Origin: Candidatus Multivoradales bacterium | GTDB taxonomy: Bacteria > Acidobacteriota > Thermoanaerobaculia > Multivoradales > J023 | Direction: 5' to 3' | Assembly: GCA_965248925.1 (NCBI GenBank) | Contig: CBDFLE010000004.1 | Location: 220,748 to 284,747, forward strand | Length of the DNA: 64,000 nt | In this document: positions 2,753 to 64,000 of the stretch, one piece after another | Position numbering within the stretch: the first letter of the stretch is position 1 | How the letters are laid out: each line of letters opens with the position of its first letter | Translations under genes and position numbers: made by a program | The notes under the pieces: generated by a model | Seen by the model: only the letters and a program-made list of their open reading frames with translations | Told to the model about the DNA's origin: nothing | Database searches by the model: none

Positions 2753-2808
2753 CCGCTGGGATCGATGGATCCACCGTATTGCGGCCCTACTGGCTTGGTT
2801 TCTAACAT
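2749..2808 (-). CDS. Small peptide MLETKPVGPQYGGSIDPSG (19 aa), putative ligand of receptor A
   Basis: Hand-translated; AAGGGAG RBS upstream of ATG; stop overlaps the receptor stop (TTAG); homologues in the same position after the other two receptors. Confidence 0.8.
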   Translation of the reverse strand: MLETKPVGPQYGGSIDPSG

Positions 2809-3079: not shown

Positions 3080-3143
3080 AAACGGTTCATTTCGAGCTTG
3101 CACAAATGAACCGTTTGGTCTCAGCGGTGGACTTGCCTACAGT
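3080..3143 (+). promoter_or_regulatory. 13-bp perfect inverted repeat followed by a putative sigma70-like promoter of rhs
   Basis: AAACGGTTCATTT-N11-AAATGAACCGTTT (3080-3116); TTGGTC(3115)-N17-TACAGT(3138), 6 nt before ATG 3150; identical at 52996-53059. Confidence 0.55.
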
Positions 3144-15100: not shown

Positions 15101-18100
15101 CGACCCGACCGGTAGTTTCACCCAGCGCAGCTACGATGGGCTCAACCGGATGACCCGCGAGATCCGTCCGGAAGGGATCTCGGTCGACTACAGTTGGGAC
15201 GACGCCTCGCGCCTCAGCACCTACACCGACGCCCGCGGTCAGGCCACCCGCTGGACCTACGACGCCGTGGGCCGGCGCACCAAAGTGGTCTACCCTGATC
15301 AGCAGCAGGAACGCTGGGTCTATGACCCCACCGGCAACGTTACCGAGCGCCACGATCCTCGCGGCTTGGTCGTGCATCAGAGCTGGGATGACGCTGGGCG
15401 GTTGCAATCACGTACTGTCACCCCGCCGCTGGGCGGCACCCTCGAAGGGCCGGGGGTCGAGGCTTTCACCTTCGACGGCCTCGACCGCCTGACCCGAGCC
15501 CAGTCGGGAAGCGTAGTTACCGAGCGAGTCTACAACTCCCTCTCCCACCTGGCCTCAGAGACGAATGCCGGACGCACCACCAGCTGGCAGCGCAACGCCC
15601 TTGGCGAGCCCACTCGCACTAGCTACCCCTCGGGCCGCCAGGTCGAGCGCGCCTTCGACAATCTCGGCCGAGCCAGCACGGTTGGCGAACCCGGCGCGCC
15701 AGCCTCGATTGCCAGCTACGGCTATCGCGGCCCGGCGATTGCCTACAAGGCTCTCGGCAATGGTCTCCTGGGCAACATAAGCTTCGATGGCTTGCGCCGG
15801 ATGGTGGACAGCAACTTCAGCCTGGCGGGGGAGTCCGCCACCTTCCAGGAGAGTCTGGCCTGGAGTCCCCGCAGCCTCAAGACCGGCCAATCGCGGGGCG
15901 ATCTGGGCGGCGCCGGCCGGGTCTTCGCCTACGATGGCGCGAAGCGCCTGATCGAATCCGCTCGCGTGCCCCCGGCTTTGGCTCAGCGCCCTGGCAACAC
16001 GCCCCCCGACGTGGCCCTGCTGGCCAGCTTGCCCGAACGCACAAGCTACCAGCACGACAACGCCATGAACCTGATTCGCAGCACCACCACCCAGCGTGGC
16101 ATCGAGCAGATCACCGATTTACCGCCGGACAATCGCAATCGTCCCAGCGCTGTCGGCGGCGTTGCCCTCGAATGGGACGCTGCCGGCAACATGAAGCGCA
16201 AGGGCGATATGCAGATGTACTATGATTTCAAGAGCCGACTGACGCGGGTCGCCCGCGCCGGTGTCGAAGTCGCCAAGTATCACTACGACGCCTTCAACCG
16301 CCGGGTGAAGGTCGAGACGCCGACCCACACTGAGGACAGCGTCTGGGACGGCTGGCAATCGTTAGAAACCTATCGCGATGGTGCCTTGGCCTCGCGGCGG
16401 GTCTACGGCAACGGTATCGACGAGATCCTGCAACAAGAGGCCGACCTCGATGGAGATGGCACGGTGGAGCAGACTTACTATCCGATCACCGACAGCACCG
16501 GCAACGTGGCGATGCTGACCGGAGCTGACGGCAAGCCCATCGAGCGCTACTTCTACACCCCGTTTGGCGGGCGCAAAGTGCTGGTCGACTCCACGCCCCC
16601 CGAGGTCGAACAGGTGCGGGTGCAAGACGGTGCACTGTGGATCGAGCTTTCTGAAGAAGTCTCCACCGAAGAACTACAAGCCAGCCTGGCCGACGGTCGC
16701 ATCCAGCTGACCCAGACCAGCGACGGAATGCCCCTGCCGCTGACTCTTGATCTGCCCGTCCAGGAAGGCCGTCAAGCTCGGCGAAGACTCGTGCTGACGC
16801 CGGCCACGCCGCCCACCGACGGCGACAGCCTGCGGCTAGAAGTCGCCGCCAGCGCGCTGAGCGACACCTTCCGCAACCTGGCCAATGCCGGCGTCGACCT
16901 CACCTGGACCTGGTCCGCGGCCCAAGAGGTGCTGCAAGACACCGCCGCGCCGCGGGTCGCCGAAGTCCTGTTGCGATCACGCATCGTCGAGATCCAGTTC
17001 AGCGAAGAAGCCGACCTCGCCGCGGCTGCCAGCGCGATCCTCTTAGACGGTCAGCCCACTAGCTGGACCCTGGCTGAAGACCGATACACCCTGGTCGCAA
17101 GCAATACTCTGGCAGCAGGCACTCACACCCTCGACATTGGTACAGACGCTCTCGACCTCGCCGGCAGCGGCCTGGCCGCTGCCTTCAGTCAAGCCCTCAA
17201 CGTGCCGGCCAGCGGCGACCAGCTGGCCTTCCAGGCCGCCGACCCGCGACTCAGCAGCACCAGTGCCGCCGGCAACGCTCATGGCTTCCATGGCCGGCCG
17301 GTGGATGAGGAAACCGGGCTGCTGTACTTTAGGAACCGTTATGTCGATCCGGAGATGGGGCGGTTTGTTAGCAGCGACCCGATGGGGTATGTGGATGGGC
17401 CTAGTGGGTATCAGTTTGCGGGGAGTTCGCCCGAGGGTTTTAGAGATCCGCTGGGGTTAGCTCTCGTGTTCGGAGGAGACAAGTCATTAGAACTAGCCGT
17501 CGGTCGTCTACGTATTCGTAGTCCACAAATCGATGCCACATTGGCGAAATACGAAGGGCCTGGGGAACCGGATCTGATCTTCCAGAGACAAGGAACGCTG
17601 GCTGCGGATCGCGACGGCGGCAAAGTATTGCAGCATTTCAAGCCGTCCTTCAATCAAAGCGAGTTTTTGCCGATAAACTTCGAAGCAATGGAAGAGGAGA
17701 CCCGCACATGGTTTGCTGATCACGCGAAGGCCAAGTCGGCTAGCGGGCCTAGATGGAAAGGAAATCCAACACTGGAAATTCCGCCAATTTTCTATAACGA
17801 CAGTACTGGCAATGGGAACTGCGATAGTGGGCGGTATATTGACCCGATGTCTGTTCGATTGGAAAGGGCGTATATAGTAGTGAGCGTTAAGGAAAACAGG
17901 GCCGGTAGTGTTGAAGAAGCGTTCAGCTTGATACACGAACTAGGCCATGCTGATCAAGCGGCAAACAATACATGGGACTTTTTATCGAAGACATGCAATG
18001 ATCAAATTTATAGGGAGTTCAGTCTTGAAACCGAATCGTGGATTGGCGTGATCCCTCACGATGAACGCAGCGTGGAAAAGTACGCAGACCAATATCGCAG

Positions 18101-18194
18101 GTCTGTAGGCATTGAACTTGGTGTGGTACCAACAGATTTGAGGAGCAAGAAAGCGTGGCTCAAGAGATTGAAAGAGATTGGATTTCGGAGATGA
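3150..18194 (+). CDS. Giant Rhs/YD-repeat toxin A (~5014 aa): signal peptide, many Ig-like repeats, propeller-like region, DUF6531-like domain, YD shell, Rhs core, HExxH C-terminal tip
   Basis: MPKQLSLRSLLVLQASLGALLLSASAAQA signal peptide; GEN..V.A.D.AGN and FSEP.D Ig repeats; GPLGPGWDHGY; YD repeats; GLLYFRNRYVDPEMGRFVSSDPMG...DPLG; tip from 17457 has lower GC and IHELGH. Confidence 0.92.
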   Translation: MPKQLSLRSLLVLQASLGALLLSASAAQAAPAFISVTPADGTLSSAATVTLTIEVQAATSLQVDGQAVTTVDPSGTVWTAGPYSLSEGERVLVLIAEDASGVQAQQLHRVVRDSLAPVLSLSQPAAAAIVASSPLTVAGTAVDAHLAAVRVGGQVAALSGASFSHSLVLVEGEQTFTVEASDSLGQSGQQSVTVTLDSQPPTVALLEGAQPLAADALFNRSVVLSFSVTDATATTVEALLDGASFVSGTTVSGAGSHVFSVTATDAAGQPTSVSRSFEIDLTAPTFLSFTPSDGTLLAGSQVTLSGVVEGAAALSVEGQAASLVGQSWTAGALQLIEGEREISIVATDLAGNSASFTLHLERDATAPQLIGLVPSVDSVLATSPVAISGTASDAHLLEVRVGGELASLTGSQFSQPAVALVEGENLLPIVATDQVGHQATAELRLVLDTQAPTLSLLVAGVPLQGGAVFAGPVTPEISASDATEVVTSATLDGATYLPGTVIDGDGLHQLSVSASDAAGHQATVLVSFSLDLAAPVFADLAPVAGSVDSAAQVTLTGRAPGAVSVSVDGQAATLAGDGFSAGPFNLSEGERVFLLAATDSGGNVTQLTHRLTRDSTAPQLTLGQPAAGSLLGSTTVDVSGTASDPRLDQVTVNGVLAEISGGAFLARQVALIEGDNVLTVVAADTVGNEVQTTRSVTVDTTPPTVVITDPASGTITPEAGLTLSGSAADPHLDRVEVAGVGASLVGEQWSLAVDLQEGSNTFTVEAFDPLGHSTSASVTVTRDSSAPEIHIESPAEGLYSPAANLTVSGTVVAEPDLTVTVGGVAATIAGSSWSAAAVPLVEGENRLIARVTDALGNQGTHTRVVWRDNQAPEFLSSIPAAGALELPAGSSFRLRFSEPLAAPSGGAYSLSTLAGQALASSAEIDGDDLVITPQAALPSATELRLVLGAGLVDRAGNALAAAHTLAFTVVDGGSPAAPQLDAYASYLCAPAITLAGSAEPGAWIEVDGGASVGAGQVADDGRFAISVVLLPEGPNHLTVIAVDAAGNPSPATSADIVHDCTAPEVLGASREAAGFRIALSETVDPLTLSGSVRVYDSGVEIAGTVSAAVNAGAGELIWTATAALPSVALLVEVEGALADLAGNPLAFPYRQLFDIALGGSFFSGTAIDDASGRPLGGVRAVVTASDGVALAEPWPEQTSGEDGRLVIALPAGTHDVTFARPGYTPVFRVVTTVDGQGTDVFDPRLTPAAAAVSIDASGGLVEGSSEVGTAPRLTLPLAGLASAAAVRLTAVGGQGLAALLPYGWAPRGAVWVDLSAVNLDSSATLDLPVTSADGTVLEAVTLDLATLQWRSLGVVTVSGGEVTMTVDGEGAWAAVEADSGALAPPPAVAGQMLGSSAAPPSGGVTSASLSFDPEVVLPTQRSWVQVLYGLAAEVPSGVPLTLSIEERLELLDGSVRRISPYSADLVLYRDSLGDPTSRFRLRPSAAARSLPVRLGAEQVSVRSYGDETVRGNVLGPDGGVVSSAEGDQVVLPTGALEEPTAVTLSRRTVADLPLAPPAGGTVDGVLELDLAGRRLLLPAELSWSLTPAPAAGTPGLLLGVVEVEGEPRYRAIAELEATATGWRTQAIDAADLAWPGVLEGGLYVFLRLDAAPRFVRGMVLDPGGAPVVGAVVESTTVPWLQISAAEGGYVLPILLDAATLSARRAVTGNAVAVALPAGVAGERVDLDLPLQIVAPWVEQITPSAGTSGVLLGVNPVVRFSEPVDRASLDGAIELRQGGVAVAVALDHQGALVTLLPQATLVPGSEYEVWVGAAVRDLQGYGLSGSVSVLFSTEVVATPAGVDRGRIFLVEPDAQGLARVEGLAGAAPAGTLVFVENLTSFSTTESVQSAGDGSFLLTIGASLEDQLLLHVLIDGGNEVVILLTPFLGADLRTGLAGTGAGEFTTADGITVRYAAGTFAGPSRVQVTPIAMGTLAAAEDFSELLTFRLEIAGAQPLKPLEVTMAAPAGTAPAGTAAGSLWLLRRQLEIADLPWMVHAELALDGGELSTIHTVGEAQSANSGEVGGTKSGTFDVPAPLRVLSPAEAAARLPRSGFLSALPPADPAALVEVEPPLAGLGAAKATVAPVLADYLVGVSRPGIYQAARAEVELGWIAFPFRGAQDLVVRTAELPEVVLALDAVNRSFLPLGAGALPVELSPTPLNADPAAPGTPGTPGSKAPPAGEPKADSVEIQVLDFAGVELYRVVVDAPTQQVVLLSPSQLPNAGPPMPLGGGPLRFHAFSAAPGTSEIAAGISAELEGNSLTVRGEAGSAGAGVAVRLIDLESSNVLSATASPGGSFSVVASPSQLGDQLVLAISAKLTPGQPLRLDFSEALQEEAPGIRVEHDGMALPITKEPLGSWAQLLIHGGWQAGKTYNLRLDSTMADAAGLPWDTDLTLPFEVAESSAGTSFALDAAHDIARLGSLLFVAAGADGLAVLDASDPRQLKNWLAAETYVDLVAEPGLPVRGVATDSHGRVVAVGGGVARRGVLLILDPQELPQGAATVPAAAILGRTLLTEPQLAGSGAPPLLIGRPLAVEIFNRDESTSWTVGEVVPPGLTLAPPSPPSGTAAVSLTVSGMATAERPVTLRNLTTGERDSARVGSAGGGGAGSFSLSLSVRRGDRLELLRNELSLAYVAGYDAGVVTVDLNAVEAADEEVDDPWDAFDLLRYNTHYFVPTEVLCSTFENDQRFDVIDARVLPAASEGEPWSVLALVENYGLLSLGASVAAPLDKLAYRDALCGEVDGNRKLGGLDVLPGYRFDRNGDGVLDDEEPERDYALLTNTVGGGGLGWLLIVDVTKRDELLLVGRIELPGPATRVTADPVGRRALVSGLGGGVYIVDLDRWPELGGGGGTPQIWSSDRVVERLSFGEDVRAPTLVAPELGLAFAGGVARGVTPISTGLPRLSLVTSGQQGLRRVARLAPFGAPTAPESAEEGAEEIPGVIRVQAQLPGGLADAEGKIRVDLAGIGPAGLPVRGLGEGLMDEPMAELKDDKALVLQRQSDNPLSEGYNVFLSDPVVLLADVRASAHFERSEAEKKVCRRCDLVDEGVYSAADLPPNELHVELLSGHQVRASYSASFATSLSGLYNADLLAGYAVIADSVPWDLSPSPHQEPVLNAATSAMAAPGTLLHSGEMTRQAIDLSLQGRGLDLALVRTYRSQTISNGPLGPGWDHGYRLRLRLLPNGDIDFFDGTGRRETFTLEDDGKLMPPVGRFVQLKKYAEGYTLIGSGYQRWRFDRWGRLVSMIDSVRTSEGTGNEITFHYDSHSRLARIHDDLDRNTFLHYDDEGRLEKIVDFSDRDFLYHYDAQGRLTSFETPDVDLGSGSSQRLSTTYAYHPLGTGLAGQLTQRDDLKSETDAKSQTWLTLRYQDSDGNGRPDALKEQDWGAGTVHLAFDFDGQQTTLTDRRGKVWTYHLNAAGQATSLIDPKSANGSWQYDGEGLLTRATRPLGGATQIEYPADTSGDRRGRGDAQRMVKIADGRGPNGSPSELVTTWEYHSPTHQPSRKTEPGGAVTVWERTDNGLPEQIVRAAGAAEQSITGLSYNARGQLLEATNPNGHVTRHSYFTSGSEEGYLKQTEVDPGGLSLVTIYERNDRGQLEAITDPRGVRHETELNRLDWPLAQVAAASTSGFLAPLGYRTTWRYDANGDITEVASPFGDGSTTTIEVRTFGVLGELLSAEREVAPGGRRIVETSTYDPNLNLLTHIDGAGQRVEREYDDRGQLSLVRRGLGTGALATPIVEHQSYDLDGHLSSQRDGRGMTWEAERDGHGRVLRSRTPLGHYREQSYGAAGDLAATLAFDAGGQLLAESAFTHDLLHRRTETTAWRWTPDPQQPDPARTAEKTHHRWDVASNLLEVEDPLGRLTRTFYDAAERPERVELPEGNVRRTTYDSGGLPITEHADEVDPAGGSHTITYQSTFDALGRRLSRQDGIFANRTLWTVDARGQVTLEVDPTGSFTQRSYDGLNRMTREIRPEGISVDYSWDDASRLSTYTDARGQATRWTYDAVGRRTKVVYPDQQQERWVYDPTGNVTERHDPRGLVVHQSWDDAGRLQSRTVTPPLGGTLEGPGVEAFTFDGLDRLTRAQSGSVVTERVYNSLSHLASETNAGRTTSWQRNALGEPTRTSYPSGRQVERAFDNLGRASTVGEPGAPASIASYGYRGPAIAYKALGNGLLGNISFDGLRRMVDSNFSLAGESATFQESLAWSPRSLKTGQSRGDLGGAGRVFAYDGAKRLIESARVPPALAQRPGNTPPDVALLASLPERTSYQHDNAMNLIRSTTTQRGIEQITDLPPDNRNRPSAVGGVALEWDAAGNMKRKGDMQMYYDFKSRLTRVARAGVEVAKYHYDAFNRRVKVETPTHTEDSVWDGWQSLETYRDGALASRRVYGNGIDEILQQEADLDGDGTVEQTYYPITDSTGNVAMLTGADGKPIERYFYTPFGGRKVLVDSTPPEVEQVRVQDGALWIELSEEVSTEELQASLADGRIQLTQTSDGMPLPLTLDLPVQEGRQARRRLVLTPATPPTDGDSLRLEVAASALSDTFRNLANAGVDLTWTWSAAQEVLQDTAAPRVAEVLLRSRIVEIQFSEEADLAAAASAILLDGQPTSWTLAEDRYTLVASNTLAAGTHTLDIGTDALDLAGSGLAAAFSQALNVPASGDQLAFQAADPRLSSTSAAGNAHGFHGRPVDEETGLLYFRNRYVDPEMGRFVSSDPMGYVDGPSGYQFAGSSPEGFRDPLGLALVFGGDKSLELAVGRLRIRSPQIDATLAKYEGPGEPDLIFQRQGTLAADRDGGKVLQHFKPSFNQSEFLPINFEAMEEETRTWFADHAKAKSASGPRWKGNPTLEIPPIFYNDSTGNGNCDSGRYIDPMSVRLERAYIVVSVKENRAGSVEEAFSLIHELGHADQAANNTWDFLSKTCNDQIYREFSLETESWIGVIPHDERSVEKYADQYRRSVGIELGVVPTDLRSKKAWLKRLKEIGFRR

Positions 18195-22559: not shown

Positions 22560-23900
22560 ATGTCAGAAGCTCTATTTCTATCCGACTATCAGCAGCTTCT
22601 AACCACGCTGAGAGTGCATGTGCGGCGCCATCCGAGGTCACTTCAAGCTATTGAGAGGCAGCTTGGGTGGTCGCGCTCCTACCTTTCTCGAAAACTGGCT
22701 GGTGCAATTAGCCTCTCTACAGAGCAGCTGCTAAAGATCCTGAAGATCGTCGACCTGAATCTTAGCGAGCTAGAAGCGAAGGCATCCTGGGTTGATGTCG
22801 AGGGCCTCCTTGAGGGTCTGCTGCCTGAAGGAAGTCGAAATCCAGCTCCGATTGTAGAGTTGCGGCGAGTGGCACGGAAGCTGACCGAGCGGGATTGCAC
22901 TTCAGAGCAGCTGAGGGGGCCAGCAGGGTCACTTATCGAAGTGCTGCATAGGATCGATCGACAGCGCTACAGGGATCCTTGGGCTTCAGCTGGACAGGCA
23001 TTCGCCCTTGCGGTGAAAGTAGCTCCTACTCTCGAAGGGTTGGGAGGCTCTGAGATCTTCTGCAGGGCGGCAAGTGTCTATGCCGCTTCCTGCCGATTGG
23101 GTGGTGCTCCCGAGTACTCAATCCGTGTTCTCTTGGTAGCTCTCTGTTCTTCAGGCCGGCTTCGATCGCGACTGCGGATTTGTCTTCTTCGACAAGCGAG
23201 CTACCTCCTGATGTCGCATGACAGGACTTCAGATGCTCTATTGGTTCTGGATCTGGCTGAAGTTCATTGCCTCAGGTCCGAAGACAGATGGTGCCGCGGG
23301 CGAACCGCTGTTGCAAGAGGCGCTGCTTTGGTCTATCTGGGAGAGTTCGAGGCTGCAGAGCGGTCATTCAGGATAGTGCTGTCGGAGCTTGAAGGGCGGA
23401 TCAACCGCAGGTTTCTTGGCTCTGCGCACCAGGGGCTCGCAAGGATCCATCTTGAGACGGATGATCTTGGGAACGCTGCTCGCGAGCTTGAACGAGCTGG
23501 TAGATTCTTTTCTCAAAGTGATCTCTATAGCCAAGGGAAGTTGGATTGGACTGTCGGTCGTTGGGCTCGCCAATGCGGCCAGAGAGATTTGGCGGAACAG
23601 AAGTTCCGAAGCGCCGTTGGACACCTCTCGTCGATCAATCCGTTCGATTCGGCACTGGCGAGTCTGGACTGGATCGATCTCCTCGTTGAAGTAGGGGAGA
23701 CTGCGGAGGCTGTAGTGATCGCTAGGAACCTGGCGGAGCTTATGGAGCCTCTCAAATCGAACACGATAGCGAGTAATACGATCGTTGCTCTTCGAAGAAA
23801 GGCCAACGCTGGTAGGTTGACGCTGAAGCTGATCGAGATTGCCCGTAAGAGGATCTCTGGTGGGCGGCTCAAAGGCATCCGCCCACCAGAGATATCCTAG
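22560..23900 (+). CDS. XRE-type HTH + TPR regulator (receptor B), separated from its RBS/promoter by the IS4
   Basis: Paralogue of receptor A (HVRRHP, QRY.DPW, INPFD, GIRPP); native GGAGGG RBS is left behind at ~21268. Confidence 0.8.
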   Translation: MSEALFLSDYQQLLTTLRVHVRRHPRSLQAIERQLGWSRSYLSRKLAGAISLSTEQLLKILKIVDLNLSELEAKASWVDVEGLLEGLLPEGSRNPAPIVELRRVARKLTERDCTSEQLRGPAGSLIEVLHRIDRQRYRDPWASAGQAFALAVKVAPTLEGLGGSEIFCRAASVYAASCRLGGAPEYSIRVLLVALCSSGRLRSRLRICLLRQASYLLMSHDRTSDALLVLDLAEVHCLRSEDRWCRGRTAVARGAALVYLGEFEAAERSFRIVLSELEGRINRRFLGSAHQGLARIHLETDDLGNAARELERAGRFFSQSDLYSQGKLDWTVGRWARQCGQRDLAEQKFRSAVGHLSSINPFDSALASLDWIDLLVEVGETAEAVVIARNLAELMEPLKSNTIASNTIVALRRKANAGRLTLKLIEIARKRISGGRLKGIRPPEIS

Positions 23901-23959
23901 CCCTCCGGAGAAATCAGCATCCCGTAGCTCATTTGGTTTTCACGAGATTTAGTTTTCAT
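23897..23959 (-). CDS. Small peptide MKTKSRENQMSYGMLISPEG (20 aa), putative ligand of receptor B
   Basis: Hand-translated; AAGGAGG RBS 6 nt before ATG; stop overlaps the receptor stop (CTAG). Confidence 0.8.
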   Translation of the reverse strand: MKTKSRENQMSYGMLISPEG

Positions 23960-51322: not shown

Positions 51323-52669
51323 ATGTTTGGCGAATCAGCGAGCGAGCAGCACCAGCGATGCCTACAAACGCTGAAGGCCCATGTGCGACGGCATCCGATG
51401 TCGGTAAGGGAGATCGAGCGCCGCCTGGGATATTCTCCGTCCTACTTGCACCGGATCCTTCGTGGCAAAGTAGGGTTGTCGTTTGAGGGCTTGTTGCAGA
51501 TGCTCGAAGTGGTGGATATGAGCTTCGAGGAGCTGGCGATCAAGACGGCGCGAGTGGATGCTGAGGGATTGTTGGAGAGAGCCTTACCTATGGGCACGGT
51601 AGATCCGCCAGAAATTAAGCAGCTGGCGTTAGTAGCAACTCAGCTCATCGAAGGTGATCTTATTGAAGCAGCATCCGATTCAGCATGTCAGGCGCTATTT
51701 CAGGCGGTGAGTGAAGCTGATGAGCAGCGCTACTCGGACCCCTGGTTAGCCGCTGAAAAGGCGTGGTCAATCGCAGCTTGTGTAGCGCCTAGAATAGCCG
51801 GCAGATCGGCGCTGGAACTCTGCTGTGGAGCGATCAGCGTATACGGGTCTTGCTGCCGAATTGGCGGAGCTGCTCAGCACGCGATTCGCGCGTTGATCAC
51901 CGTCAGCCAGCTCGTTCGCTCGTGCGGGCTGAGCCATCGGGCGGACTGGCTTCTTCGGGCCTCGGCGGCCTTGAATAGTCATGGTGAGCACGATGCAGGG
52001 CTGGAACTTGCTATTGTAGCTGGGGAGATCTACGAGAGATCCGGAGACAGTGCGGGTATGGGTTCGGCTTGTATCAGCAAGGCTCAGGCCTTGACACTTC
52101 TGCCGGACTTCGAGCGTGCAGAGATCGCGTTGCGACTTGCTATTCTCCAGATTCCGTCGCTAGGCTATGAGCGTCAGATATGCGCGGCACATCACGGTCT
52201 TGCAAAGATTCTGATCTTCCGAGGGGACTTAGGGGAGGCGAGTTCACATCTCAAGCTTGCATTGTCGATAACCCACAGTTCGGACACATACTGCCGGGGC
52301 ATGCTGGCCCGAACCATGGGCAATTGGCATTCGAAGAAAGGACATAGGGAAGCAGCGATAGAGAGTTTTCGCCTGGCGGAAAGCTGCCTTTCTGGGATTA
52401 ACCCTTTCGACACGACATTCGTCGTACTCGATCAGATCGAGTTTTGTTTGGAAGATGGCCGACCCCATGAGGCGATCAAGGCTGCCGAAGACACGTCCGA
52501 GCTGATCGAGCTTTTCAAGTCTAATCCGATCGCGGGTGGCATTCTCTTGAGGCTTCGAGATGCTGCCCAGAAGGGGCGGCTGACTGTGCGTTTGATTGAG
52601 GTTGCCCGGAAGAAGATGGCCGGCAGGCGGTGTTGCGGAATCCGCCCACCGGCAGTTCTAGAAATCTAG
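51323..52669 (+). CDS. XRE-type HTH + TPR regulator (receptor C)
   Basis: HTH essentially identical to receptor A; TPR half diverged. Confidence 0.85.
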   Translation: MFGESASEQHQRCLQTLKAHVRRHPMSVREIERRLGYSPSYLHRILRGKVGLSFEGLLQMLEVVDMSFEELAIKTARVDAEGLLERALPMGTVDPPEIKQLALVATQLIEGDLIEAASDSACQALFQAVSEADEQRYSDPWLAAEKAWSIAACVAPRIAGRSALELCCGAISVYGSCCRIGGAAQHAIRALITVSQLVRSCGLSHRADWLLRASAALNSHGEHDAGLELAIVAGEIYERSGDSAGMGSACISKAQALTLLPDFERAEIALRLAILQIPSLGYERQICAAHHGLAKILIFRGDLGEASSHLKLALSITHSSDTYCRGMLARTMGNWHSKKGHREAAIESFRLAESCLSGINPFDTTFVVLDQIEFCLEDGRPHEAIKAAEDTSELIELFKSNPIAGGILLRLRDAAQKGRLTVRLIEVARKKMAGRRCCGIRPPAVLEI

Positions 52670-52725
52670 CCGTTTGGCTCGATGAACCCACCATAGTGCG
52701 ATTCGGCTGGTTTGGACTTGAGCAT
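52666..52725 (-). CDS. Small peptide MLKSKPAESHYGGFIEPNG (19 aa), putative ligand of receptor C
   Basis: Hand-translated; GAGGGAG RBS; stop overlaps the receptor stop (CTAG). Confidence 0.8.
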   Translation of the reverse strand: MLKSKPAESHYGGFIEPNG

Positions 52726-52995
52726 TCGTTTCTCCCTCGAACCGAGCTAGACTGGCCACGTAATTGCGTCCGCTGCTCGCTACAGATGCCAAAGCTACCG
52801 TGCTTCTCAAGGCAGATCCTTCGATTGAATGCCCACCGGAGGGGTGGCCGAGGCCGTGTCCGCGGTTGAGTGCCAGCGGAACTCGATTGCTCATAAATCA
52901 CCGAAGGCTAGCTATTAGCTCCGAGTGAGGCCGCCAATAGGCGGGCCTCGTGCATCCAGCGCAGCAGAACCTCTGTCATTCAGTGATCTGAGGGG

Positions 52996-53059
52996 AAACG
53001 GTTCATTTCGAGCTTGCACAAATGAACCGTTTGGTCTCAGCGGTGGACTTGCCTACAGT
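52996..53059 (+). promoter_or_regulatory. 13-bp inverted repeat and putative rhs promoter (module C copy)
   Basis: Identical to 3080-3143. Confidence 0.55.
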
Positions 53060-53065
53060 CTTCCG

Positions 53066-56000
53066 ATGCCAAAACAGCTATCTCTGCGCTCTCTCCTCGT
53101 CCTCCAAGCCTCTCTCGGTGCCCTCCTACTGTCGGCGAGCGCCGCTCAAGCGGCGCCTGCCTTTATCTCGGTAACCCCCGCCGACGGCACTCTGTCGAGC
53201 GCCGCGACGGTGACTCTGACTATCGAAGTGCAGGCCGCGACCAGCTTGCAGGTGGATGGCCAAGCGGTCACCACGGTTGATCCCTCGGGGACGGTGTGGA
53301 CCGCTGGTCCTTACTCGTTGAGCGAGGGGGAGCGGGTGTTGGTGTTGATTGCCGAGGACGCTTCCGGGGTGCAGGCTCAGCAGCTGCACCGGGTGGTGCG
53401 GGACTCGCTGGCGCCGGTGCTGAGCCTGAGCCAGCCGGCGGCGGCGGCGATTGTCGCCAGCTCGCCGCTGACCGTGGCCGGCACGGCGGTGGATGCGCAT
53501 CTGGCGGTGGTGCGGGTGGGGGGGCAGGTGGCGGCTCTCAGTGGTGCGAGTTTTTCGCACTCGCTGGTCTTGGTGGAGGGCGAGCAGACGTTCACCGTGG
53601 AGGCGAGCGACAGCCTGGGGCAGAGCGGGCAGCAGAGTGTGACGGTGACTCTCGATAGCCAGCCGCCGACGGTGGCGCTGTTGGAGGGAGCTCAGCCGCT
53701 GGCGGCGGGTGCGCTGTTCAATCGCTCGGTGGTGCTGAGCTTCAGCGTCACGGATGCGACGGCTACGACGGTCGAAGCGCTGCTCGACGGCGCTTCGACC
53801 GTCTCTGGCACGATGGTGAGCGGGGCGGGCTCGCATGTGTTCTCAGTGACCGCCACCGACGCGGCGGGCCATCCGACTAGCGTCAGCCGGAGCTTTGAGA
53901 TCGACCTGACGGCGCCGACTTTTCTCAGCTTCACGCCGAGCGATGGCACCCTCTTGGCAGACTCGCAGGTGACCCTCAGCGGGGTGGTGGAGGGTGCGGC
54001 CGCGCTGAGTGTCGAGGGACAGGCGGCGAGCCTGGTGGGGCAGTCGTGGACGGCCGGGGCATTGCAGCTGATCGAGGGGGAGCGGGAGATTTCTATCCTC
54101 GCTACTGATCTGGCGGGCAATAGCGCCTCGTTCACCTTGCATTTGGAGCGCGACGCGACGGCGCCGCAGCTGATCGGCCTGGTGCCCAGCCTGGACACGG
54201 TTCTGGCGACCTCGCCGGTGGCCGTAAGCGGCACCGCGAGTGACGCCCACTTGCTGGAGGTGCGGGTGGGGGGCGAGCTGGCGAGCCTGACGGGCTCGCA
54301 GTTCAGCCAGCCGGCGGTGGCGCTGGTGGAGGGTGAGAATCTCCTGCCGATCGTCGCCACGGATCAGGTGGGCCATCAGGCGACGGCCGAGCTGCGGCTG
54401 GTGCTCGATACCCAGGCACCGACGCTGTCGCTGCTGGTGGCGGGGGTGCCGCTGCAGGGTGGCGCGGTGTTCGCCGGCCCGGTGACGCCTGAGATCTCGG
54501 CCAGCGACGCCACCGAGGTGGTGACGTCGGCGACTCTCGACGGCGCCACCTACTTGCCGGGCACGGTGATTGATGGCGATGGCTTGCATCAGCTGTCAGT
54601 GAGCGCCAGCGACGCGGCGGGCCATCAGGCGACGGTGCTGGTGAGCTTCAGCCTCGACCTGGCGCCGCCGGTGTTCGCGGATCTGGCGCCGGTGGCTGGC
54701 AGTGTGGACAGCGCTTCTCAGGTGACGCTGACCGGCCGCGCGCCGGGGGCGGTGTCGGTGTCGGTGGACGGGCAGGCGGCGACGCTGGCGGGGGATGGCT
54801 TCAGCGCCGGTCCCTTCAATTTGAGCGAAGGGGAGCGAGTGTTTCTGCTCGCCGCCATCGATGGCGGCGGCAACGTCACCCAGCTGACCCACCGCTTGAC
54901 CCGCGACTCGACGGCGCCGCAGCTCACCCTCGGCCAGCCGGCGGCCGGATCCCTGCTGGGGAGTACCACGGTCGATGTCAGCGGCACGGCGAGTGATCCG
55001 CGTCTTGATCAGGTGACGGTCAATGGGGTGCTGGCCGAAATCAGTGGCGGCGCTTTCCTGGCCCGTCAGGTGGCGCTTATTGAAGGTGACAATGTGCTCA
55101 CCGTGGTGGCGGCGGACACGGTGGGCAACGAGGTCCAAACGACCCGCTCGGTGACCGTTGATACGACGCCGCCGACGGTCGTCATCACCGACCCGGCCAG
55201 CGGCACGATCACCCCCGAGGCGGGGCTGACCCTGTCGGGCAGCGCCGCGGATCCTCATCTCGACCGGGTCGAGGTGGCGGGGGTGGGGGCGAGCCTGGTG
55301 GGTGAGCAATGGTCGTTGGCGGTGGATCTGCAAGAGGGCAGTAACACTTTCACCGTCGAAGCCTTCGACCCGCTCGGCCACAGCACCAGCGCCAGCGTCA
55401 CGGTGACTCGCGACAGCTCGGCGCCTGAGATCCACATCGAGAGCCCGGCCGAGGGGCTTTACAGCCCAGCAGCGAATCTCACGGTCAGCGGCACGGTGGT
55501 CGCGGAGCCCGATTTGACAGTGACGGTGGGCGGCGTGGCGGCGACGATTGCGGGCAGCAGCTGGAGCGCCGCCGCGGTGCCGCTAGTAGAGGGTGAGAAC
55601 CGGCTGATCGCAAGGGTGACCGACGCCCTGGGCAACCAAGGCACTCACACGCGGGTGGTGTGGCGCGACAACCAAGCGCCGGAGTTTCTATCGTCGATCC
55701 CCGCCGCGGGGGCTCTCGAGCTGCCGGCCGGCAGCAGCTTCCGGCTGCGCTTCAGCGAGCCGTTGGCGGCGCCCAGCGGGGGCGCCTACAGCCTCAGCAC
55801 ATTGGCTGGGCAAGCCCTGGCGAGCAGTGCCGAGATCGATGGCGACGACTTGGTGATCACCCCGCAGGCAGCACTGCCGTCGGCCACCGAGCTGCGCCTG
55901 GTGCTAGGGGCGGGGCTGGTCGATCGGGCGGGCAATGCTCTAGCGGCGGCTCATACTCTGGCTTTCACCGTGGTCGATGGCGGCTCCCCGGCGGCGCCGC

Positions 56001-59000
56001 AGCTCGACGCCTACGCTAGCTATCTCTGTGCGCCGGCTATCACCCTTGCCGGCAGTGCCGAGCCTGGTGCTTGGATCGAGGTAGATGGCGGGGCCTCAGT
56101 AGGAGCGGGGCAGGTGGCAGACGATGGCCGTTTCGCCATCAGCGTCGTGCTGCTGCCCGAGGGGCCGAATCACCTGACGGTGATCGCCGTCGACGCCGCG
56201 GGCAACCCCTCGCCCGCGACGAGCGCCGATATCGTCCACGATTGCACCGCGCCGGAGGTGCTGGGTGCCAGCCGGGAGGCGGCGGGATTCCGCATCGCCC
56301 TCAGCGAGACGGTCGACCCTCTGAGCTTGAGCGGCTCGGTGCGGGTGTACGACGGCGGGATGGAAATCGCCGGCACAGAGAGTGCGACTGCCAGCGAGCT
56401 GATCTGGACCGCCAGCGGAGCGTTGCCAGCAGTCGCTCTGCTGGTCGAAGTCGAGGGAGCTTTGGCGGACCTGGCCGGCAACCCGTTGGCTTTCCCCTAC
56501 CGGCAACTCTTCGATATAGCCCTGGGCGGTAGCTTCTTCTCTGGCACCGCTATCGACGACGCCTCCGGCCGGCCGCTGGGCGGGGTGCGGGCGGTGGTGA
56601 CGGCGAGCGATGGGGTGGCCCTGGCCGAGCCCTGGCCGGAGCAGACCAGCGGCGAGGACGGTCGCCTGGTGATCGCTCTGCCCGCCGGCACTCACGACGT
56701 GACCTTTGCCCGGCCGGGCTACACGCCGGTGTTTCGGGTGGTGACGACGGTCGACGGCCAAGGCACGGACGTTTTCGACCCTCGCCTGACGCCGGCCGCG
56801 GCGGCGGTGTCGATAGATGCATCGGGCGGCTTGGTGGAGGGCTCTTCCGAGGTCGGCACGGCGCCGCGTCTCACTCTTCCGCCCGCCGGCCTGGCGTCGG
56901 CTGCGGCGGTGCGCCTGACGGCGGTGGGCGGCCAGGGGCTGGCCGCCTTGCTGCCCTACGGCTGGGCACCGCGGGGTGCCGTCTGGGTGGATCTCTCGGC
57001 CGTGAATCTGGATAGTTCCGCGACCCTCGATCTGCCGGTGACCTCGGCCGACGGGACGGTCCTGGAAGCGGTGACTCTCGATCTCGCCACCCTGCAATGG
57101 CGTTCGCTGGGGGTGGTGACGGTGAGCGGCGGCGAGGTCACGATGACCGTCGACGGCGAAGGAGCCTGGGCGGCGGTGGAAGCCGACTCGGGAGCTTTGG
57201 CGCCGCCCCCGGCGGTCGCTGGCCAGATGCTGGGCTCCTCGGCCGCGCCGCCGTCCGGCGGGGTGACTAGCGCCAGCCTGAGCTTCGATCCCGAGGTGGT
57301 CTTGCCGACGCAGCGCAGCTGGGTACAGGTGCTCTACGGGCTGGCGGCGGAGGTGCCGAGCGGGGTGCCGCTGACTTTGTCGATCGAGGAGCGGCTGGAG
57401 CTACTCGATGGCAGCGTGCGGCGGATCAGTCCCTACAGCGCCGATCTGGTGCTCTACCGCGATTCGCTGGGCGATCCGACCTCGAGGTTCCGCCTGCGGC
57501 CTTCGGCCGCGGCGCGCAGCCTGCCGGTGCGGCTAGGTGCCGAGCAAGTCAGCGTGCGGTCCTACGGTGATGAGACGGTGCGCGGCAACGTGCTCGGCCC
57601 CGACGGCGGGGTGGTGTCGAGTGCCGAGGGCGATCAGGTGGTGTTGCCGACGGGAGCCCTCGAGGAGCCCACGGCGGTGACCCTGAGTCGCCGGACAGTG
57701 GCAGATCTGCCGCTGGCTCCACCCGCTGGTGGCACGGTCGATGGCGTCTTGGAGCTGGACCTTGCCGGCCGCCGGCTGTTGCTGCCGGCTGAGTTGTCGT
57801 GGTCGCTGACCCCGGCACCGGCTGCTGGCACGCCGGGTTTGTTGCTAGGGGTGGTGGAAGTGGAAGGCGAGCCGCGCTATCGGGCGATTGCCGAGCTGGA
57901 AGCCACCGGCACGGGCTGGAGGACCCAGGCGATTGACGCTGCCGATCTGGCCTGGCCGGGGGTGCTGGAAGGTGGTTTGTACGTTTTCTTGCGCCTCGAT
58001 GCGGCACCGCGCTTTGTGCGGGGCATGGTGCTTGACCCAGGAGGTGCTCCGGTCGTGGGCGCGGTGGTCGAGTCGACGACGGTGCCTTGGCTCCAGATCT
58101 CAGCCGCCGAGGGTGGCTACGTGCTGCCGATTCTGCTGGATGCCGCCACTCTCAGCGCGCGGCGCGCGGTCACCGGCAACGCGGTGGCGGTGGCGCTGCC
58201 GGCCGGGGTTGCGGCGGAGCGGGTCGATCTCGATTTGCCGCTACAGATCGTGGCGCCGTGGGTCGAGCAGATCACTCCGTCAGCGGGCACCAGCGGAGTG
58301 CTGCTCGGCTTCAATCCAGTGGTGCGTTTCAGCGAGCCGGTGGATCGGGCCTCGCTCGATGGCGCTATCGAGCTGCGCCAGGGGGGCGTGGCGGTGGCGG
58401 TGGCACTCGATCACCAGGGCGCCCTGGTCACCCTGCTACCGCAGGCGACGCTGGTGCCCGGCAGCGAGTACGAGGTCTGGGTGGGGGCGGCGGTGCGTGA
58501 CTTGCAGGGCTATGGGCTGAGCGGCTCGGTGAGCGTGCTGTTTAGCACCGAGGTGGTGGCGACGCCAGCCGGGGTCGATCGCGGGCGGATCTTCCTGGTC
58601 GAGCCCGATGCCCAGGGGCTGGCGCGAGTGGAGGGCCTGGCGGGGGCGGCGCCGGCCGGCACGCTGGTCTTCGTCGAAAACCTGACATCGTTCTCGACCA
58701 CCGAATCTGTACAGAGCGCGGGTGACGGCAGCTTCCTACTGACAATCGGCGCCAGCCTCGACGATCAGCTGCTGCTGCATGTGCTGATCGACGGCGGTAA
58801 CGAGGTAGTGATCCTGCTGACTCCGTTCCTGGGCGCCGACCTGCGCACCGGCCTGGCGGGGACGGGGGCGGGGGAGTTTACGACCGCCGATGGAATCACC
58901 GTGCGTTACGCGGCTGGCACCTTCGCCGGGCCGTCCAGGGTGCAGGTGACGCCGATCGCCATGGGCACGCTGGCGGCGGCAGAAGACTTCAGCGAGCTGG

Positions 59001-62000
59001 TGACCTTCCGGCTGGAGATCGCCGGCGCGCAGCCACTGAAGCCGCTGGAAGTGACGATGGCGGCGCCGGCTGGCACCGCACCAGCTGGCACCGCAGCGGG
59101 CAGCCTCTGGCTGCTGCGCCGGCAGCTCGAGATTGCCGATTTACCGTGGATGGTCCACGCCGAGCTGGCTCTCGATGGCGGTGAGCTGAGCACGATCCAC
59201 ACCGTGGGCGAAGCCCAATCCGCCAACTCCGGCGAGGTGGGTGGCACCAAGTCAGGCACGTTTGACGTGCCGGCCCCTCTGCGGGTACTGAGCCCGGCAG
59301 AAGCCGCCGCGCGGCTGCCGCGCTCGGGCTTCTTGAGCGCTCTGCCGCCTGCTGACCCAGCGGCTCTGGTCGAGGTCGAGCCGCCCCTGGCCGGCTTGGG
59401 ACCGGCCAAGGCGACCGTTGTCCCCGTCCTGGCGGACTACCTGGTCGGCGTCTCCCGCCCCGGCATCTACCAGGCAGCGAGGGCCGAGGTCGAGCTGGGT
59501 TGGATCGCCTTCCCCTTCCGTGGCGCCCAAGATCTGGTGGTGCGCACCGCCGAGTTACCCGAGGTGGTGCTGGCGCTCGATGCCGTCAACCGCTCCTTCC
59601 TGCCGCTAGGCGCCGGTGCCTTGCCGGTTGAACTCAGCCCGACGCCATTGAACGCCGATCCAGCCGCGCCGGGGACCAAGGCGCCGCCAGCGGGCGAGCC
59701 CAAGGCCGACTCGGTGGAGATCCAGGTGCTCGATTTCGCCGGTGTCGAGCTTTACCGGCTGGTGGTCGACGCCCCGACCCAGCAGCTGGTGCTGCTGACC
59801 CCCAGCCAGCTACCCAACGCCGGGCCGCCCATGCCGGTGGGTGGTGGGCCGCTGCGCTTCCATGCATTCGACGTCGCTGAAGGCACCGCTGAGATCGCCG
59901 CCGGCATCAGCGCCGAGCTGGAGGGTAACTCGCTCACCGTGCGCGGCGAGGCCGGCAGTGCCGGAGCTGGAGTGGCGGTGCGTTTGATCGATCTAGAAAG
60001 CTCGAACGTGCTCAGCGCTACGGCTTCTCCAGGCGGTAGCTTCAGCGTCGTCGCCAGTCCGTCGCAGCTCGGCGATCAGCTGGTGCTGGCGATCTCGGCC
60101 AAGCTCACTCCCGGCCAGCCGCTGCGCCTCGACTTCTCAGAAGCCTTGCAAGAAGAGGCGCCAGGTATCCGGGTCGAGCACGACGGGATGGCGCTGCCGA
60201 TCACCAAAGAGCCTCTGGGCAGCTGGGCACAGCTGCGGATCCATGGCGGCTGGCAGGCTGGCAAGACCTACAACTTGCGCCTGGACTCCACCATGGCCGA
60301 CGCCGCCGGCTTGCCTTGGGATACTGACCTGACTCTGCCTTTCGAAGTCGCCGAATCGAGCGCCGGCACTAGCTTCGCGCTCGACGCGGCGCACGACATC
60401 GCGCGCCTCGGCTCGTTGCTCTTCGTGGCCGCCGGCGCCGATGGCCTGGCGGTGCTCGACGCCAGCGACCCGCGCCAGCTGAAGAACTGGCTGGCGGCTG
60501 AGACCTACGTCGATCTGGTCTCGGAGCCAGGTCTACCGGTGCGCGGGGTGGCGACCGACAGCCATGGCCGGGTGGTGGCAGTAGGGGGTGGCGTCGCCCG
60601 CCGGGGGGTGCTGCTGATCCTCGATCCGCAAGAGCTGCCCCAGGGTGCCGCGACGGTGCCCGCGGCGGCGATTCTCGGCCGCACCCTCCTCACCGAGCCC
60701 CAGCTGGCTGGCTCGGGTGCCCCGCCGCTGCTCATCGGTCGGCCGCTGGAGGTCGAAATCTTCAACCGCGACCAGAGCACGACTTGGACGCTGGGGGAGG
60801 CGGTGCCGCCGGGCCTCACCCTGGCCCCGCCCAGTCCACCGAGCGGCACGGCGGCCGTCTCGCTCACGGTCAGCGGCATGGCGACGGCGGAGCGTCCGGT
60901 GACCTTGCGCAATCTCACCACCGGCGAGCGCGACAGCGCTCGCGTCGGCAGTGCTGGTGGCGGCGGTGCTGGCAGTTTCTCCCTGAGTCTCAGCGTGCAG
61001 CGCGGCGACCGCCTGGAGCTACTGCGCAACGAGCTGTCCCTGGCCTACGTGGCAGGTTACGACGCCGGGGTGGTGACGGTGGATCTGAACGCCGTCGAAG
61101 CGGCCGATGAGGAAGTCGACGATCCCTGGGATGCTTTCGATCTGCTGCGCTACAACACCCATTATTTTGTACCGACCGAGGTGCTGTGCTCGACGTTTGA
61201 GAACGACCAGCGCTTCGACGTGATCGAGGCGCGGGTGCTGCCGGCGGCGTCGGAGGGCGAGCCTTGGAGCGTGCTGGCTCTGGTTGAGAACTATGGCTTG
61301 CTGTCGCTGGGTGCCTCGGTCGCTGCGCCGCTGGACAAGCTGGCCTACCGCGACGCTCTGTGCGGCGAGGTCGATGACAACCGCAAGCTGGGCGGTCTCG
61401 ACGTGCTGCCCGGCTACCGTTTCGACCGTAACGGCGACGGTGTGCTGGACGACGATGAGCCCGAGCGTGACTACGCGCTGCTCACCAACACCGTCGGTGG
61501 CGGCGGTCGTGGCTGGCTGCTGATTGTCGATGTCACCGAGCGCGATGAGCTTCGCCGGGTGGGCCGCATCGAGCTGCCCGGCCCGGCGACGCGGGTGACT
61601 GCTGATCCGGTCGGCCGCCGCGCCCTGGTCTCAGGCCTCGGTGGCGGGGTCTACATCGTCGACCTCGACCGCTGGCCCGAGCTGGGTGGCGGCGGCGGAA
61701 CCCCTCAGATCTGGTCGAGCGATCGGGTGGTCGAGCGCTTGAGCTTTGGCGAGGACGTGCGCGCCCCCACCTTGGTGGCGCCGGAGCTGGGCCTGGCCTT
61801 CGCCGGTGGCGTTGCCCGCGGCGTGACCCCCATCAGCACCGGCCTGCCGCGCCTGTCGCTGGTGACCAGCGGCCAGCAGGGACTGCGTCGGGTCGCCCGG
61901 CTGGCGCCATTTGGCGCGCCTACCGCGCCGGAGAGTGCCGAGGAGGGAGCGGAAGAAATACCCGGCGTGATCCGCGTGCAGGCGCAGCTTCCTGGTGGCC

Positions 62001-64000
62001 TGGCCGATGCCGAGGGCAAGATCCGTGTCGACCTCGCGGGCATCGGCCCCGCCGGTTTGCCGGTGCGCGGCCTCGGCGAGGGGCTGATGGACGAGCCCAT
62101 GGCCGAGCTGAAAGACGATAAGGCGCTGGTGCTACAACGGCAGTCGGACAACCCCCTGTCAGAGGGCTACAACGTCTTCCTCTCCGACCCGGTGGTGCTG
62201 CTGGCTGACGTGCGCGCCTCGGCGCATTTCGAGCGCTCGGAGGCTGAGAAGAAGGTCTGCCGCCGCTGCGACCTGGTGGACGAGGGGGTCTACTCCGCGG
62301 CCGATCTACCTCCCAACGAGCTGCATGTCGAGCTGCTGTCGGGTCACCAGGTCCGCGCCAGCTACAGCGCCAGCTTCGCCACCAGCCTCAGCGGGCTTTA
62401 CAACGCCGATCTGCTAGCGGGCTACGCCGTCATCGCCGACAGTGTGCCCTGGGATCTCAGCCCCTCGCCGCACCAGGAGCCGGTGCTCAATGCCGCCACT
62501 AGCGCGATGGCGGCGCCGGGCACCCTCCTGCACTCAGGAGAGATGACCCGCCAGGCGATCGACTTAAGCCTCCAAGGCCGGGGATTGGACCTCGCCTTGG
62601 TGCGCACCTACCGCAGCCAGACAAATCAGCAACGGCCCCCTCGGCCCGGGCTGGGATCATGGCTACCGCCTGCGCCTGCGGCTCTTGCCCAATGGCGATA
62701 TCGACTTCTTCGACGGCACTGGCCGCCGCGAGACCTTCACCTTGGAAGACGACCGCGAGCTGAAGCCGCCCGTCGGCCGCTTCGTCCAGCTCAAGAAGTA
62801 CGCCGAGGGCTACACCCTGATCGGCAGCGGCTACCAGCGCTGGCGTTTCGACCGCTGGGGTCGTTTAGTGTCGATGATCGACTCGGTGCGCACCAGCGAA
62901 GGGACCGGCAACGAGATCACCTTCCACTACGACTCCCACTCGCGCCTGGCGCGAATCCACGACGACCTCGACCGCAACACCTTCCTGCACTACGACGACG
63001 AAGGCCGCCTGGAGAAGATCGTCGACTTCAGTGATCGCGACTTCCTCTACCACTACGACGCCCAGGGAAGATTGACCAGTTTCGAGACCCCAGACGTCGA
63101 CCTCGGCAGCGGCAGCAGCCAGCGCCTGTCGACCACCTACGCCTACCACATCCCCTTGGCACGGGCCTGGCCGGGCAGCTCACCCAGCGCGATGATCTGA
63201 AAAGCGAGACCGACGCCAAGAGCCAGACCTGGCTCACCCTGCGGTATCAGGACTCCGACGGCAACGGCCGCCCCGATGCGCTCAAAGAACAAGACTGGGG
63301 AGCGGGGACAGTGCATTTGGCCTTCGATTTCGACGGCCAGCAGACCACCCTCACCGATCGCCGAGGCAAAGTCTGGACCTACCATCACAACGCTGCTGGG
63401 CAGGCCACCAGCCTGGTCGATCCGAAGTCAGCCAACGGGTCGTGGCAATACGACGGCGAGGGTCTACTGACCCGCGCCACCCGCCCCCTGGGTGGGGCTA
63501 CCGAGATCGAGTATCCGGCGGACACCTCCGGCGACCGCCGCGGCAGAGGCGATGCTCTGCGGATGGTTAAGATCGCCGACAGCCGCGGCCCCAACGGCTC
63601 GCCCAGCGAGCTGGTGACCACCTGGGAATACCACTCGCCGACCCACCAGCCCAGCCGAAAGACCGAGCCCGGTGGCGCGGTGACGGTGTGGGTACGGACG
63701 GACAATGGCCTGCCCCAGCAAATCGTGCGGGCGGCTGGCGCGGCGGAGCAGAGCATCACCGGATTGACCTACAACGCCCGCGGCCAGCTGCTGGAAGCCA
63801 CTAATCCCAACGGTCACGTCACCCGCCACAGCTATTTCGCCTCTGGCGGGCAGAAAGGCTATCTGCAGCAAACAGAAGTCGACCCTGGCGGTCTCAGTCT
63901 GGTCACCACCTACGAGCGCAATGATCGCGGCCAGCTGGAGGCGATCACCGATCCGCGGGGTGTGCGCCATGAGACCGAGCTGAACAATCTGGATTGGCCG
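53066..64000 (+). CDS. Giant Rhs toxin C (paralogue of A), incomplete at the window edge, with apparent frameshifts at ~62623 and ~63148
   Basis: Near-identical to Rhs A; +A (ACAAATC vs ACAATC) and +CA (TACCACATCC vs TACCATCC), either sequencing errors or real lesions. Confidence 0.85.

Follow-up and report, generated by a model that had tools for sequence, protein, structure and literature searches.

Mosaic modules of paired HTH-TPR regulator and small peptide genes, predicted to signal in the manner of RRNPP systems, in a probable acidobacterium

Two modules and a diverged block

The window analysed here is a 64-kb stretch of a 285-kb contig, taken from a genome of 7.98 Mb in 6 contigs. It contains two closely related modules, A and C, in each of which a regulator gene meets a very small convergent gene and is followed by a giant gene; two further modules of the same kind, D and E, lie on the same contig outside the window. 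In module C, the regulator (51323..52669, plus strand, 448 aa) has an N-terminal helix-turn-helix (HTH) of the XRE type, followed by about nine helical hairpins resembling tetratricopeptide repeats (TPR). The small gene encodes a peptide of 19 aa, MLKSKPAESHYGGFIEPNG (52666..52725, minus strand); its stop codon overlaps that of the regulator (CTAG), and a Shine-Dalgarno sequence, AGGGAGA, lies upstream. The counterparts in module A are a regulator of 447 aa (1409..2752, plus strand), 82% identical overall to regulator C, and a peptide of 19 aa, MLETKPVGPQYGGSIDPSG (2749..2808, minus strand), which also has a Shine-Dalgarno site.

A preliminary description of this DNA had proposed that modules A and C are nearly identical around a single diverged block of ~1.1 kb, and both self-BLAST of the window and sliding-window identity bear this out. 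By self-BLAST, A 1-576 and C 50094-50669 are 99.3% identical, and A 754-14111 and C 50668-64000 are 95.6% identical over 13,375 columns, the block included. A sliding window of 100 nt gives 93-100% identity as far as A~1950/C~51864; identity then steps down through 87, 80, 70 and 61%, remains at 61-88% until A~2993/C~52910, and from A 3043/C 52959 returns abruptly to 99-100%. Overall, the two modules are 60-88% identical within the block, against 97-100% on either side of it. Outside the block, 242 of 11,080 aligned bases differ between the two modules. The block itself (51900..52960 in module C and 1980..3044 in module A, about 1.1 kb) comprises regulator codons ~190-448, i.e., the C-terminal TPR half, the 19-codon peptide gene on the minus strand and the ~235 nt that precede its start. 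The coordinates, the peptide strings and the protein strings AISMVFLKDNERAATTFHSALLH and AQALTLLPDFERAEIALRLAILQ given in that description were all correct, the last two being located in the two regulators, and the HTH, which it had called unchanged, differs between A and C at 2 positions within residues 1-80.

The same block appears in all six pairwise comparisons of modules A, C, D and E: the HTH part and the giant gene are 94-100% identical in every pair, and the block is 57-88% identical. In every pair, then, divergence extends over the C-terminal TPRs, the small but genuine peptide gene and its upstream region together, as had been claimed from A and C. Measured from the regulator start, the block spans about +550 (+250 in E) to +1640. 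Its 3' edge is sharp, and its 5' edge varies by module, lying at about +250 in E and at +500-600 in the others. Over the peptide gene and the intergenic sequence, D and E share 84-88% identity, against 57-79% for the other pairs, but their TPR parts are not close. The block is thus a mosaic in its own right.

By the Nei-Gojobori method, synonymous divergence (dS) among the four modules is ~0.035 in codons 1-80 versus 0.63-0.97 from codon 191 to the end, a gap of about 20-fold for which constraint alone cannot account. The ratio of nonsynonymous to synonymous divergence (dN/dS) from codon 191 to the end is 0.17-0.32. Amino-acid divergence is highest in residues 256-315, where dN rises to 0.35. 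High dS together with low dN/dS points to old alleles within recently homogenised flanks rather than to recent positive selection. What the block contains, then, are old alleles under purifying selection, whose flanks recombination or gene conversion has homogenised recently. Diversifying selection, which a dN/dS comparison might have revealed in what the preliminary description took for a specificity block, left no sign: positive selection or a diversifying burst was rejected because no window exceeds 0.43, although this test is weak, with dS near saturation.

The peptides end in YGGSIDPSG in A and YGGFIEPNG in C (both minus strand), in FGPFIDPNG in D and in FGTSIDPSG in E, so that all four nonapeptides are different. 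Positions 1, 3, 4, 6 and 8 vary, and G2, I5, P7 and G9 are fixed. Between D and E, the peptide leaders are nearly identical and the nonapeptides differ at three residues. The proportion of synonymous differences exceeds that of nonsynonymous differences (pS > pN) in 11 of 12 comparisons of the peptide open reading frame (ORF), and synonymous changes occur at the codons for the invariant Pro and Gly.

A family of regulator-peptide pairs

The arrangement is repeated many times in this genome. Regulator C has 39 tblastn matches in its own genome, and an iterated profile search with a length cut-off of at least 250 aa recovered 65 regulator-family ORFs. Thirty of the 65 have a small convergent ORF ending in [ILVMYFA]-x-P-x-G, placed -4 to +42 nt from the regulator stop, and two further pairs were recognised by eye. 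In most pairs the two stop codons overlap or abut (offsets of -4 to +7). A stricter motif, [YFWH][GA]xx[ILV]xPxG followed by a stop, occurs 28 times in the six-frame translation of the genome; 21 of these occurrences are convergent and within 80 nt of the stop of a family member, compared with ~0.04 expected. One of the remaining seven stands beside a truncated regulator copy, and the other six look like chance matches. Nearly all of the peptide genes have an ATG or GTG start and a Shine-Dalgarno-like site. The precursors are 11-43 aa long, with N-termini that are hydrophilic and often basic, and at least four of those in this genome carry the C-terminal unit twice in tandem. Such tandem copies match the multi-peptide propeptides of RRNPPA systems as described in the available part of PMC9765709. 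On this sequence evidence, the small ORFs form a genuine family of genes, linked to that of the receptors.

Module B, which also lies in the window, belongs to this wider family. Its regulator (22560..23900, plus strand) is 39% identical to regulator A and has an HTH sequence of its own, and its peptide of 20 aa, MKTKSRENQMSYGMLISPEG (23897..23959, minus strand), is preceded by a GGAGG Shine-Dalgarno site in the same arrangement as in A and C. Elsewhere, three identical copies of one regulator-peptide pair, with a peptide ending in LYGPAIMPGG, are found at C4:188008, C5:39734 and C5:52060, the last of them, the copy whose surroundings were examined, before an Rhs gene; their identity indicates that whole modules have recently been duplicated across contigs.

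Pfam assigns HTH_31 to regulators A and C (5.3e-7 and 1.3e-6, respectively, above the cut-off), as well as HTH_3, and in regulator C it also matches TPR_12, TPR_2 and TPR_MalT. An AlphaFold2 (AF2) model of regulator C, obtained with a 90-sequence alignment (pLDDT 94.4, pTM 0.91), has 24 helices, six N-terminal and 18 after the HTH. The positions that vary among A, C, D and E are densest in residues 263-356 (helices H15-H19), the stretch that also holds the Pfam TPR matches. Foldseek against the PDB ranked generic TPR proteins highest, its 47 matches at E <= 0.001 including Rap and NprR, and a profile search of the PDB found NprR (5dbk, E 3e-9) amid many generic TPR proteins. In a wide structural search, the top match was APPBP2 with a C-terminal RxxGP degron (Z 26.4), and the matches also included phage Rap with its peptide (Z 21.4), APC subunits and LGN (Z ~20), NprR-NprX (Z 19.4), RapH (Z 17.2), PlcR-PapR (Z 17.1) and AimR (Z 14.6). 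The modelled fold fits a peptide-binding TPR receptor and does not by itself place it in the RRNPPA clade.

Among related organisms, a regulator match at E <= 1e-5 is present in 21 of 23 other genomes belonging to the same taxonomic family, as against 2 of 17 from different families within the order. Thirteen of 27 regulator-family ORFs from the same-family genomes carry a peptide at the stop (10 found by pattern and 3 by eye). Among 1.84 billion proteins, a profile of 15 paralogues retrieved 317 cluster representatives at E <= 1e-30; one named member is annotated as hypothetical and comes from an Acidobacteriota metagenome-assembled genome (MAG). A word-index protein search matched five proteins, all from the present genome, and no counterpart of the regulator was found among plasmids by tblastn. 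An alignment of 15 paralogues offered no conserved stretch usable for a related-locus search, and such a search of genome contigs with seven paralogues gave 117 pattern matches and no relatives.

We also scanned metagenome contigs starting from the peptide, with a degenerate pattern for G-P-[FLIM]-[IV]-[DE]-P-N-G-stop. This yielded 33 loci, many encoding 19-aa peptides and some with two or three tandem units. A family regulator adjoins the peptide in seven of the 33: it is convergent in one, lies on the peptide's strand in five, and spans the peptide on the same strand in one. In the five same-strand loci, the regulator frame begins 76-82 nt after the peptide stop in three and 633 nt after it in one, and lies upstream in one. 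Four other loci adjoin an ABC-ATPase protein, and those left over have no neighbour in common within the DNA examined. Adjacency is thus kept while orientation changes, which favours a trans-acting pair over a cis-acting element.

One group of metagenome loci (L194, L198, L203, L208, L209, L212, L213, L214, L219 and L222) encodes peptides of ~19 aa of the form M-x-x-K/R-T-x-I/V-K-A-G-x-G-P-I/L-M/I-D-P-N-G. No recognisable HTH-TPR regulator was found in the DNA examined around them, and four of the loci have, upstream and on the peptide's strand, a protein containing an ABC-ATPase. The class of peptides may be wider than the receptor family.

Giant genes, palindrome and neighbourhood

The gene that follows the peptide in module A (3150..18194, plus strand) encodes Ig-like repeats, DUF6531 and RHS repeats, and its N-terminus resembles a signal peptide on direct reading. 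Pfam identifies Glucodextran_B, Big_5, DUF6531 (5.5e-13) and RHS_repeat (5e-49 and 2e-23). The RHS repeats, a pre-shell region of the DUF6531 type and a variable C-terminus are features of Rhs polymorphic toxins; the C-terminal toxin domain itself had no match in Pfam. A 207-aa ORF (18155-18778, plus strand) overlaps the end of this gene and has no Pfam match; its position fits that of an immunity gene.

The giant Rhs-type gene of module C (53066..64000, plus strand) runs off the window; the Pfam results above come from the near-identical gene of A. Relative to A, it has insertions of one nucleotide at 62623 and two at 63147, which put ~524 nt in the wrong frame and close the long ORF at 63034; either the copy is broken or the assembly is wrong here. 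In module B, the alignment of the giant gene (23997-29360) with A starts at A 10174, so that this gene is 5'-truncated. Transposases of insertion sequence (IS) elements lie between the modules, at 21300-22457 (minus strand; DDE_Tnp_1/DUF4372) and at 49074-49988 (minus strand; rve integrase core), both identified by Pfam, and a 304-aa ORF at 44894-45808 (minus strand) has ~92% DNA identity to the latter. A small ORF with a domain like pterin-4a-carbinolamine dehydratase (PF01329) occurs at 50768-51199 (minus strand) and at L143:2385-2864, divergently upstream of regulators of two different clades.

Just outside the block in module C, 26 nt before the ATG of the giant gene, is a palindrome with 21-nt arms, CTGAGGGGAAACGGTTCATTT-N11-AAATGAACCGTTTGGTCTCAG (equivalently, AAACGGTTCATTT-N11-AAATGAACCGTTT; 52988..53040). 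The same palindrome precedes giant gene A (3072..3124), and all four modules, A, C, D and E, carry it unaltered before the ATG of the giant gene. Its arms are conserved and its spacer is variable. Across the genome, its 13-nt arm is found at 16 sites on either strand: six are one-strand matches and ten are full palindromes, of which five lie on contig C4, the contig of modules A, C, D and E. The preliminary description had spoken of unchanged candidate operators. The sequence is indeed unchanged in the four modules, but the operator role is unproven, and we rejected the palindrome as the operator of the regulator HTH on that ground, given that it also occurs without an HTH-TPR regulator and beside another regulator clade. 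The palindrome thus travels with the giant gene. It could be a protein site or a hairpin in the 5' untranslated region. A promoter and terminator scan of 52500-53200 returned no promoter-like and no terminator-like site.

In the neighbourhoods of 20 further pairs, five pairs adjoin genes with RHS repeats and one adjoins a giant gene with Ig domains, the modules on contig C4 being additional; the rest adjoin transposases or unrelated genes. Altogether, about 13 of at least 30 pairs adjoin Rhs or other giant surface-protein genes. No modifying enzyme was found in the 20 neighbourhoods. The genome encodes two Opp-type peptide-binding proteins, which are weak and non-specific evidence for re-import.

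Interpretation and comparison with known systems

In the available portions of PMC10075063, PMC9765709 and PMC12700828, signalling by peptides that act on cytoplasmic HTH-TPR receptors is presented as characteristic of Firmicutes and the mobile elements that they carry. We found no description of RRNPP systems in Acidobacteria in the literature searched, and searches combining Acidobacteria with quorum sensing, peptide or tetratricopeptide, or Rhs with peptide pheromone, gave nothing relevant.

The reading that we favour, with a probability of about 0.6, is that the modules encode RRNPP-like receptor-peptide pairs whose cassettes have been kept as old functional alleles in otherwise homogenised modules. 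Each module would encode a cytoplasmic HTH-TPR receptor and a convergent precursor peptide of 19-20 aa. The precursor would be processed to its C-terminal unit, and this nonapeptide (aromatic-G-x-x-I-x-P-x-G) would be the ligand bound by the neighbouring receptor, after export and re-import if the system serves quorum sensing. Binding would alter the action of the HTH head at nearby promoters, including that of the Rhs gene, which would then be under control of the pair, and possibly that of the peptide gene. Modules with the same head and a different cassette would respond to different peptides, so that the four alleles would be orthogonal. Recent recombination or gene conversion has made the DNA-binding head and the toxin gene of A, C, D and E the same almost to the base, while the predicted ligand-binding half of the receptor and the peptide gene persist as four old functional alleles.

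Several results weigh against this reading. The dN/dS ratio is below 1 everywhere (0.11-0.47 across sub-regions, with a window maximum of 0.43). Structurally, RRNPPA receptors are not set apart from other matches to the model, since APPBP2, APC subunits and LGN score equally or higher. Precursors of 11-43 aa, read directly, have no room for a Sec signal peptide, and neither an exporter nor a processing protease was found beside the pairs in the 20 neighbourhoods. None of 18 ORFs resembling the regulator family in different taxonomic families of the phylum has a peptide beside it; in the metagenomes, 26 of the 33 peptide loci lack a family regulator in the DNA examined, and four of the 33 adjoin an ABC-ATPase protein instead. 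The palindrome, too, is found at sites without an HTH-TPR regulator and beside another regulator clade.

The mosaic pattern could arise without selection for specificity, from copying or conversion of the modules by way of the long Rhs and upstream stretches in which they are identical. Conversion tracts may stop where homology drops, and a diverged core would then persist passively, divergence itself acting as a barrier to gene conversion, with pairs that may cross-talk or be partly redundant. The near-saturated dS and low dN/dS in all sub-regions of the block are consistent with this account, as are the 5' edge, whose differences among modules fit independent conversion tracts, and the internal mosaic in which D and E are alike in the peptide and intergenic part. 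We nevertheless regard a purely neutral mosaic as rather doubtful, because neither the receptor half nor the peptide gene is disrupted in any of the four blocks, each of which has a nonapeptide of its own, and because the nearly identical leaders of D and E end in nonapeptides that differ at three residues. Somewhat less probable again is a peptide that never leaves the cell, either as an intracellular co-factor or antagonist of the neighbouring regulator or as a precursor modified by enzymes encoded elsewhere. The precursors without signal peptides, the 20 neighbourhoods without an exporter and a host that is probably diderm, in which a free peptide would meet two membranes on the way out and two on the way in, would all suit such a peptide. 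The tandem C-terminal units speak for the other side, suggesting processing to several identical short peptides as in secreted RRNPPA propeptides (PMC9765709, available part), as do the lack of a modifying enzyme in the 20 neighbourhoods and, weakly, the two Opp-type binding proteins.

The small ORF might also act in cis, as a ribosome-arrest or leader peptide or as a source of convergent antisense transcription, with P-x-G-stop serving stalling rather than binding. Overlapping or abutting stops in most pairs, and a leader-like ORF 76-82 nt upstream of the regulator in some metagenome loci, are what such an element might look like. A cis mechanism would not tolerate the switch of orientation between lineages, convergent here and mostly co-directional in the metagenomes, with adjacency kept, and two or three tandem copies of the motif per ORF are hard to reconcile with stalling at a stop codon; we consider this explanation very improbable.

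If the favoured receptor-peptide pairing is correct, a more far-reaching version of it can be put forward tentatively, as something we think possible and by no means probable. Leaderless precursors of 19-43 aa would be cut to nonapeptides and read by HTH-TPR receptors, giving a large family of cell-cell signalling systems in a diderm phylum, with dozens of private channels in one genome, several of them sharing a DNA-binding head, and with swapped cassettes gating Rhs toxins by kin peptides. Deployment of the toxins would then depend on the kin peptides present. With its clear peptide signature, its dozens of pairs per genome and its linkage to Rhs toxins, such a family would extend the logic of RRNPP signalling to a diderm soil phylum. 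The modules would offer a natural set of receptor-peptide pairs sharing one DNA-binding head, and would make it testable whether kin-specific peptides switch on interbacterial toxins. The mosaic shows, within a single genome, recombination homogenising the surroundings of a specificity cassette that stays distinct.

Of known systems, the closest likeness is to RRNPP(A) systems (Rap-Phr, NprR-NprX, PlcR-PapR, PrgX, Rgg-SHP, ComR-ComS and AimR-AimP), with which the present pairs share a cytoplasmic receptor combining an XRE-type HTH and a TPR superhelix, as outlined in the available part of PMC10075063. Some RRNPPA propeptides are likewise multi-copy (PMC9765709, available part). The TPR-type domain of the receptor is seen in the Pfam matches, the AF2 model and the fold matches, Rap, NprR, PlcR and AimR being among the structural matches of regulator C, and the HTH is N-terminal, as in Rgg, NprR, PlcR, PrgX and AimR. 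The short peptide gene is directly adjacent, with its conserved and presumably active part at the C-terminus. Convergent overlap is also a feature of the Rgg/SHP genes of group III, and PlcR-PapR comes in pherotypes. At the sequence level, the searches support no closer similarity of the present receptors to these systems than that of generic TPR proteins. The known systems belong to Firmicutes and their phages and plasmids, whereas the present host is probably an acidobacterium: its RecA is closest to those of Acidobacteriota MAGs (79-84%), which supports placement at the phylum level only. The precursors here have no Sec signal and are not hydrophobic like SHP, the C-terminal motif aromatic-G-x-x-I-x-P-x-G belongs to the present family alone, and at least 30 pairs, many of them linked to Rhs genes, occur in one genome.

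Staphylococcal agr and Bacillus comQXP are hypervariable pherotype loci, and the preliminary description had drawn the comparison with agr. The likeness holds for the population-genetic pattern, a sharply bounded diverged block over the signal gene and the sensing part of the receptor with conserved flanks and old alleles, and does not extend to the components. There is no protein of the AgrB/D/C or ComQ/X/P type among the ORFs scanned, in which neither a kinase nor an AgrB-like match was found, and an HTH-TPR protein takes the receptor's place. Instead of variants of one locus in different strains, the alleles in the present case are paralogues within a single genome. With Rhs/YD-repeat polymorphic toxin loci, the modules share the DUF6531, RHS repeats and variable C-terminus of the downstream gene, as well as repeated modules, interspersed IS elements and recombination; they differ in the dedicated peptide-receptor pair in front, for which we found no equivalent Rhs locus in the literature searched. 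The best structural match of regulator C, APPBP2 (PDB 8jal; Z 26.4, root-mean-square deviation 3.5, 286 residues aligned), is also a TPR superhelix that reads a short C-terminal motif containing Gly and Pro (the RxxGP degron), but it is a eukaryotic ubiquitin-ligase adaptor without an HTH, and at 12% identity the fold alone is shared. Taken against these systems, the present one is best described as an RRNPP-type system of a diderm phylum, having a cassette structure built by recombination and a predicted function in signalling.

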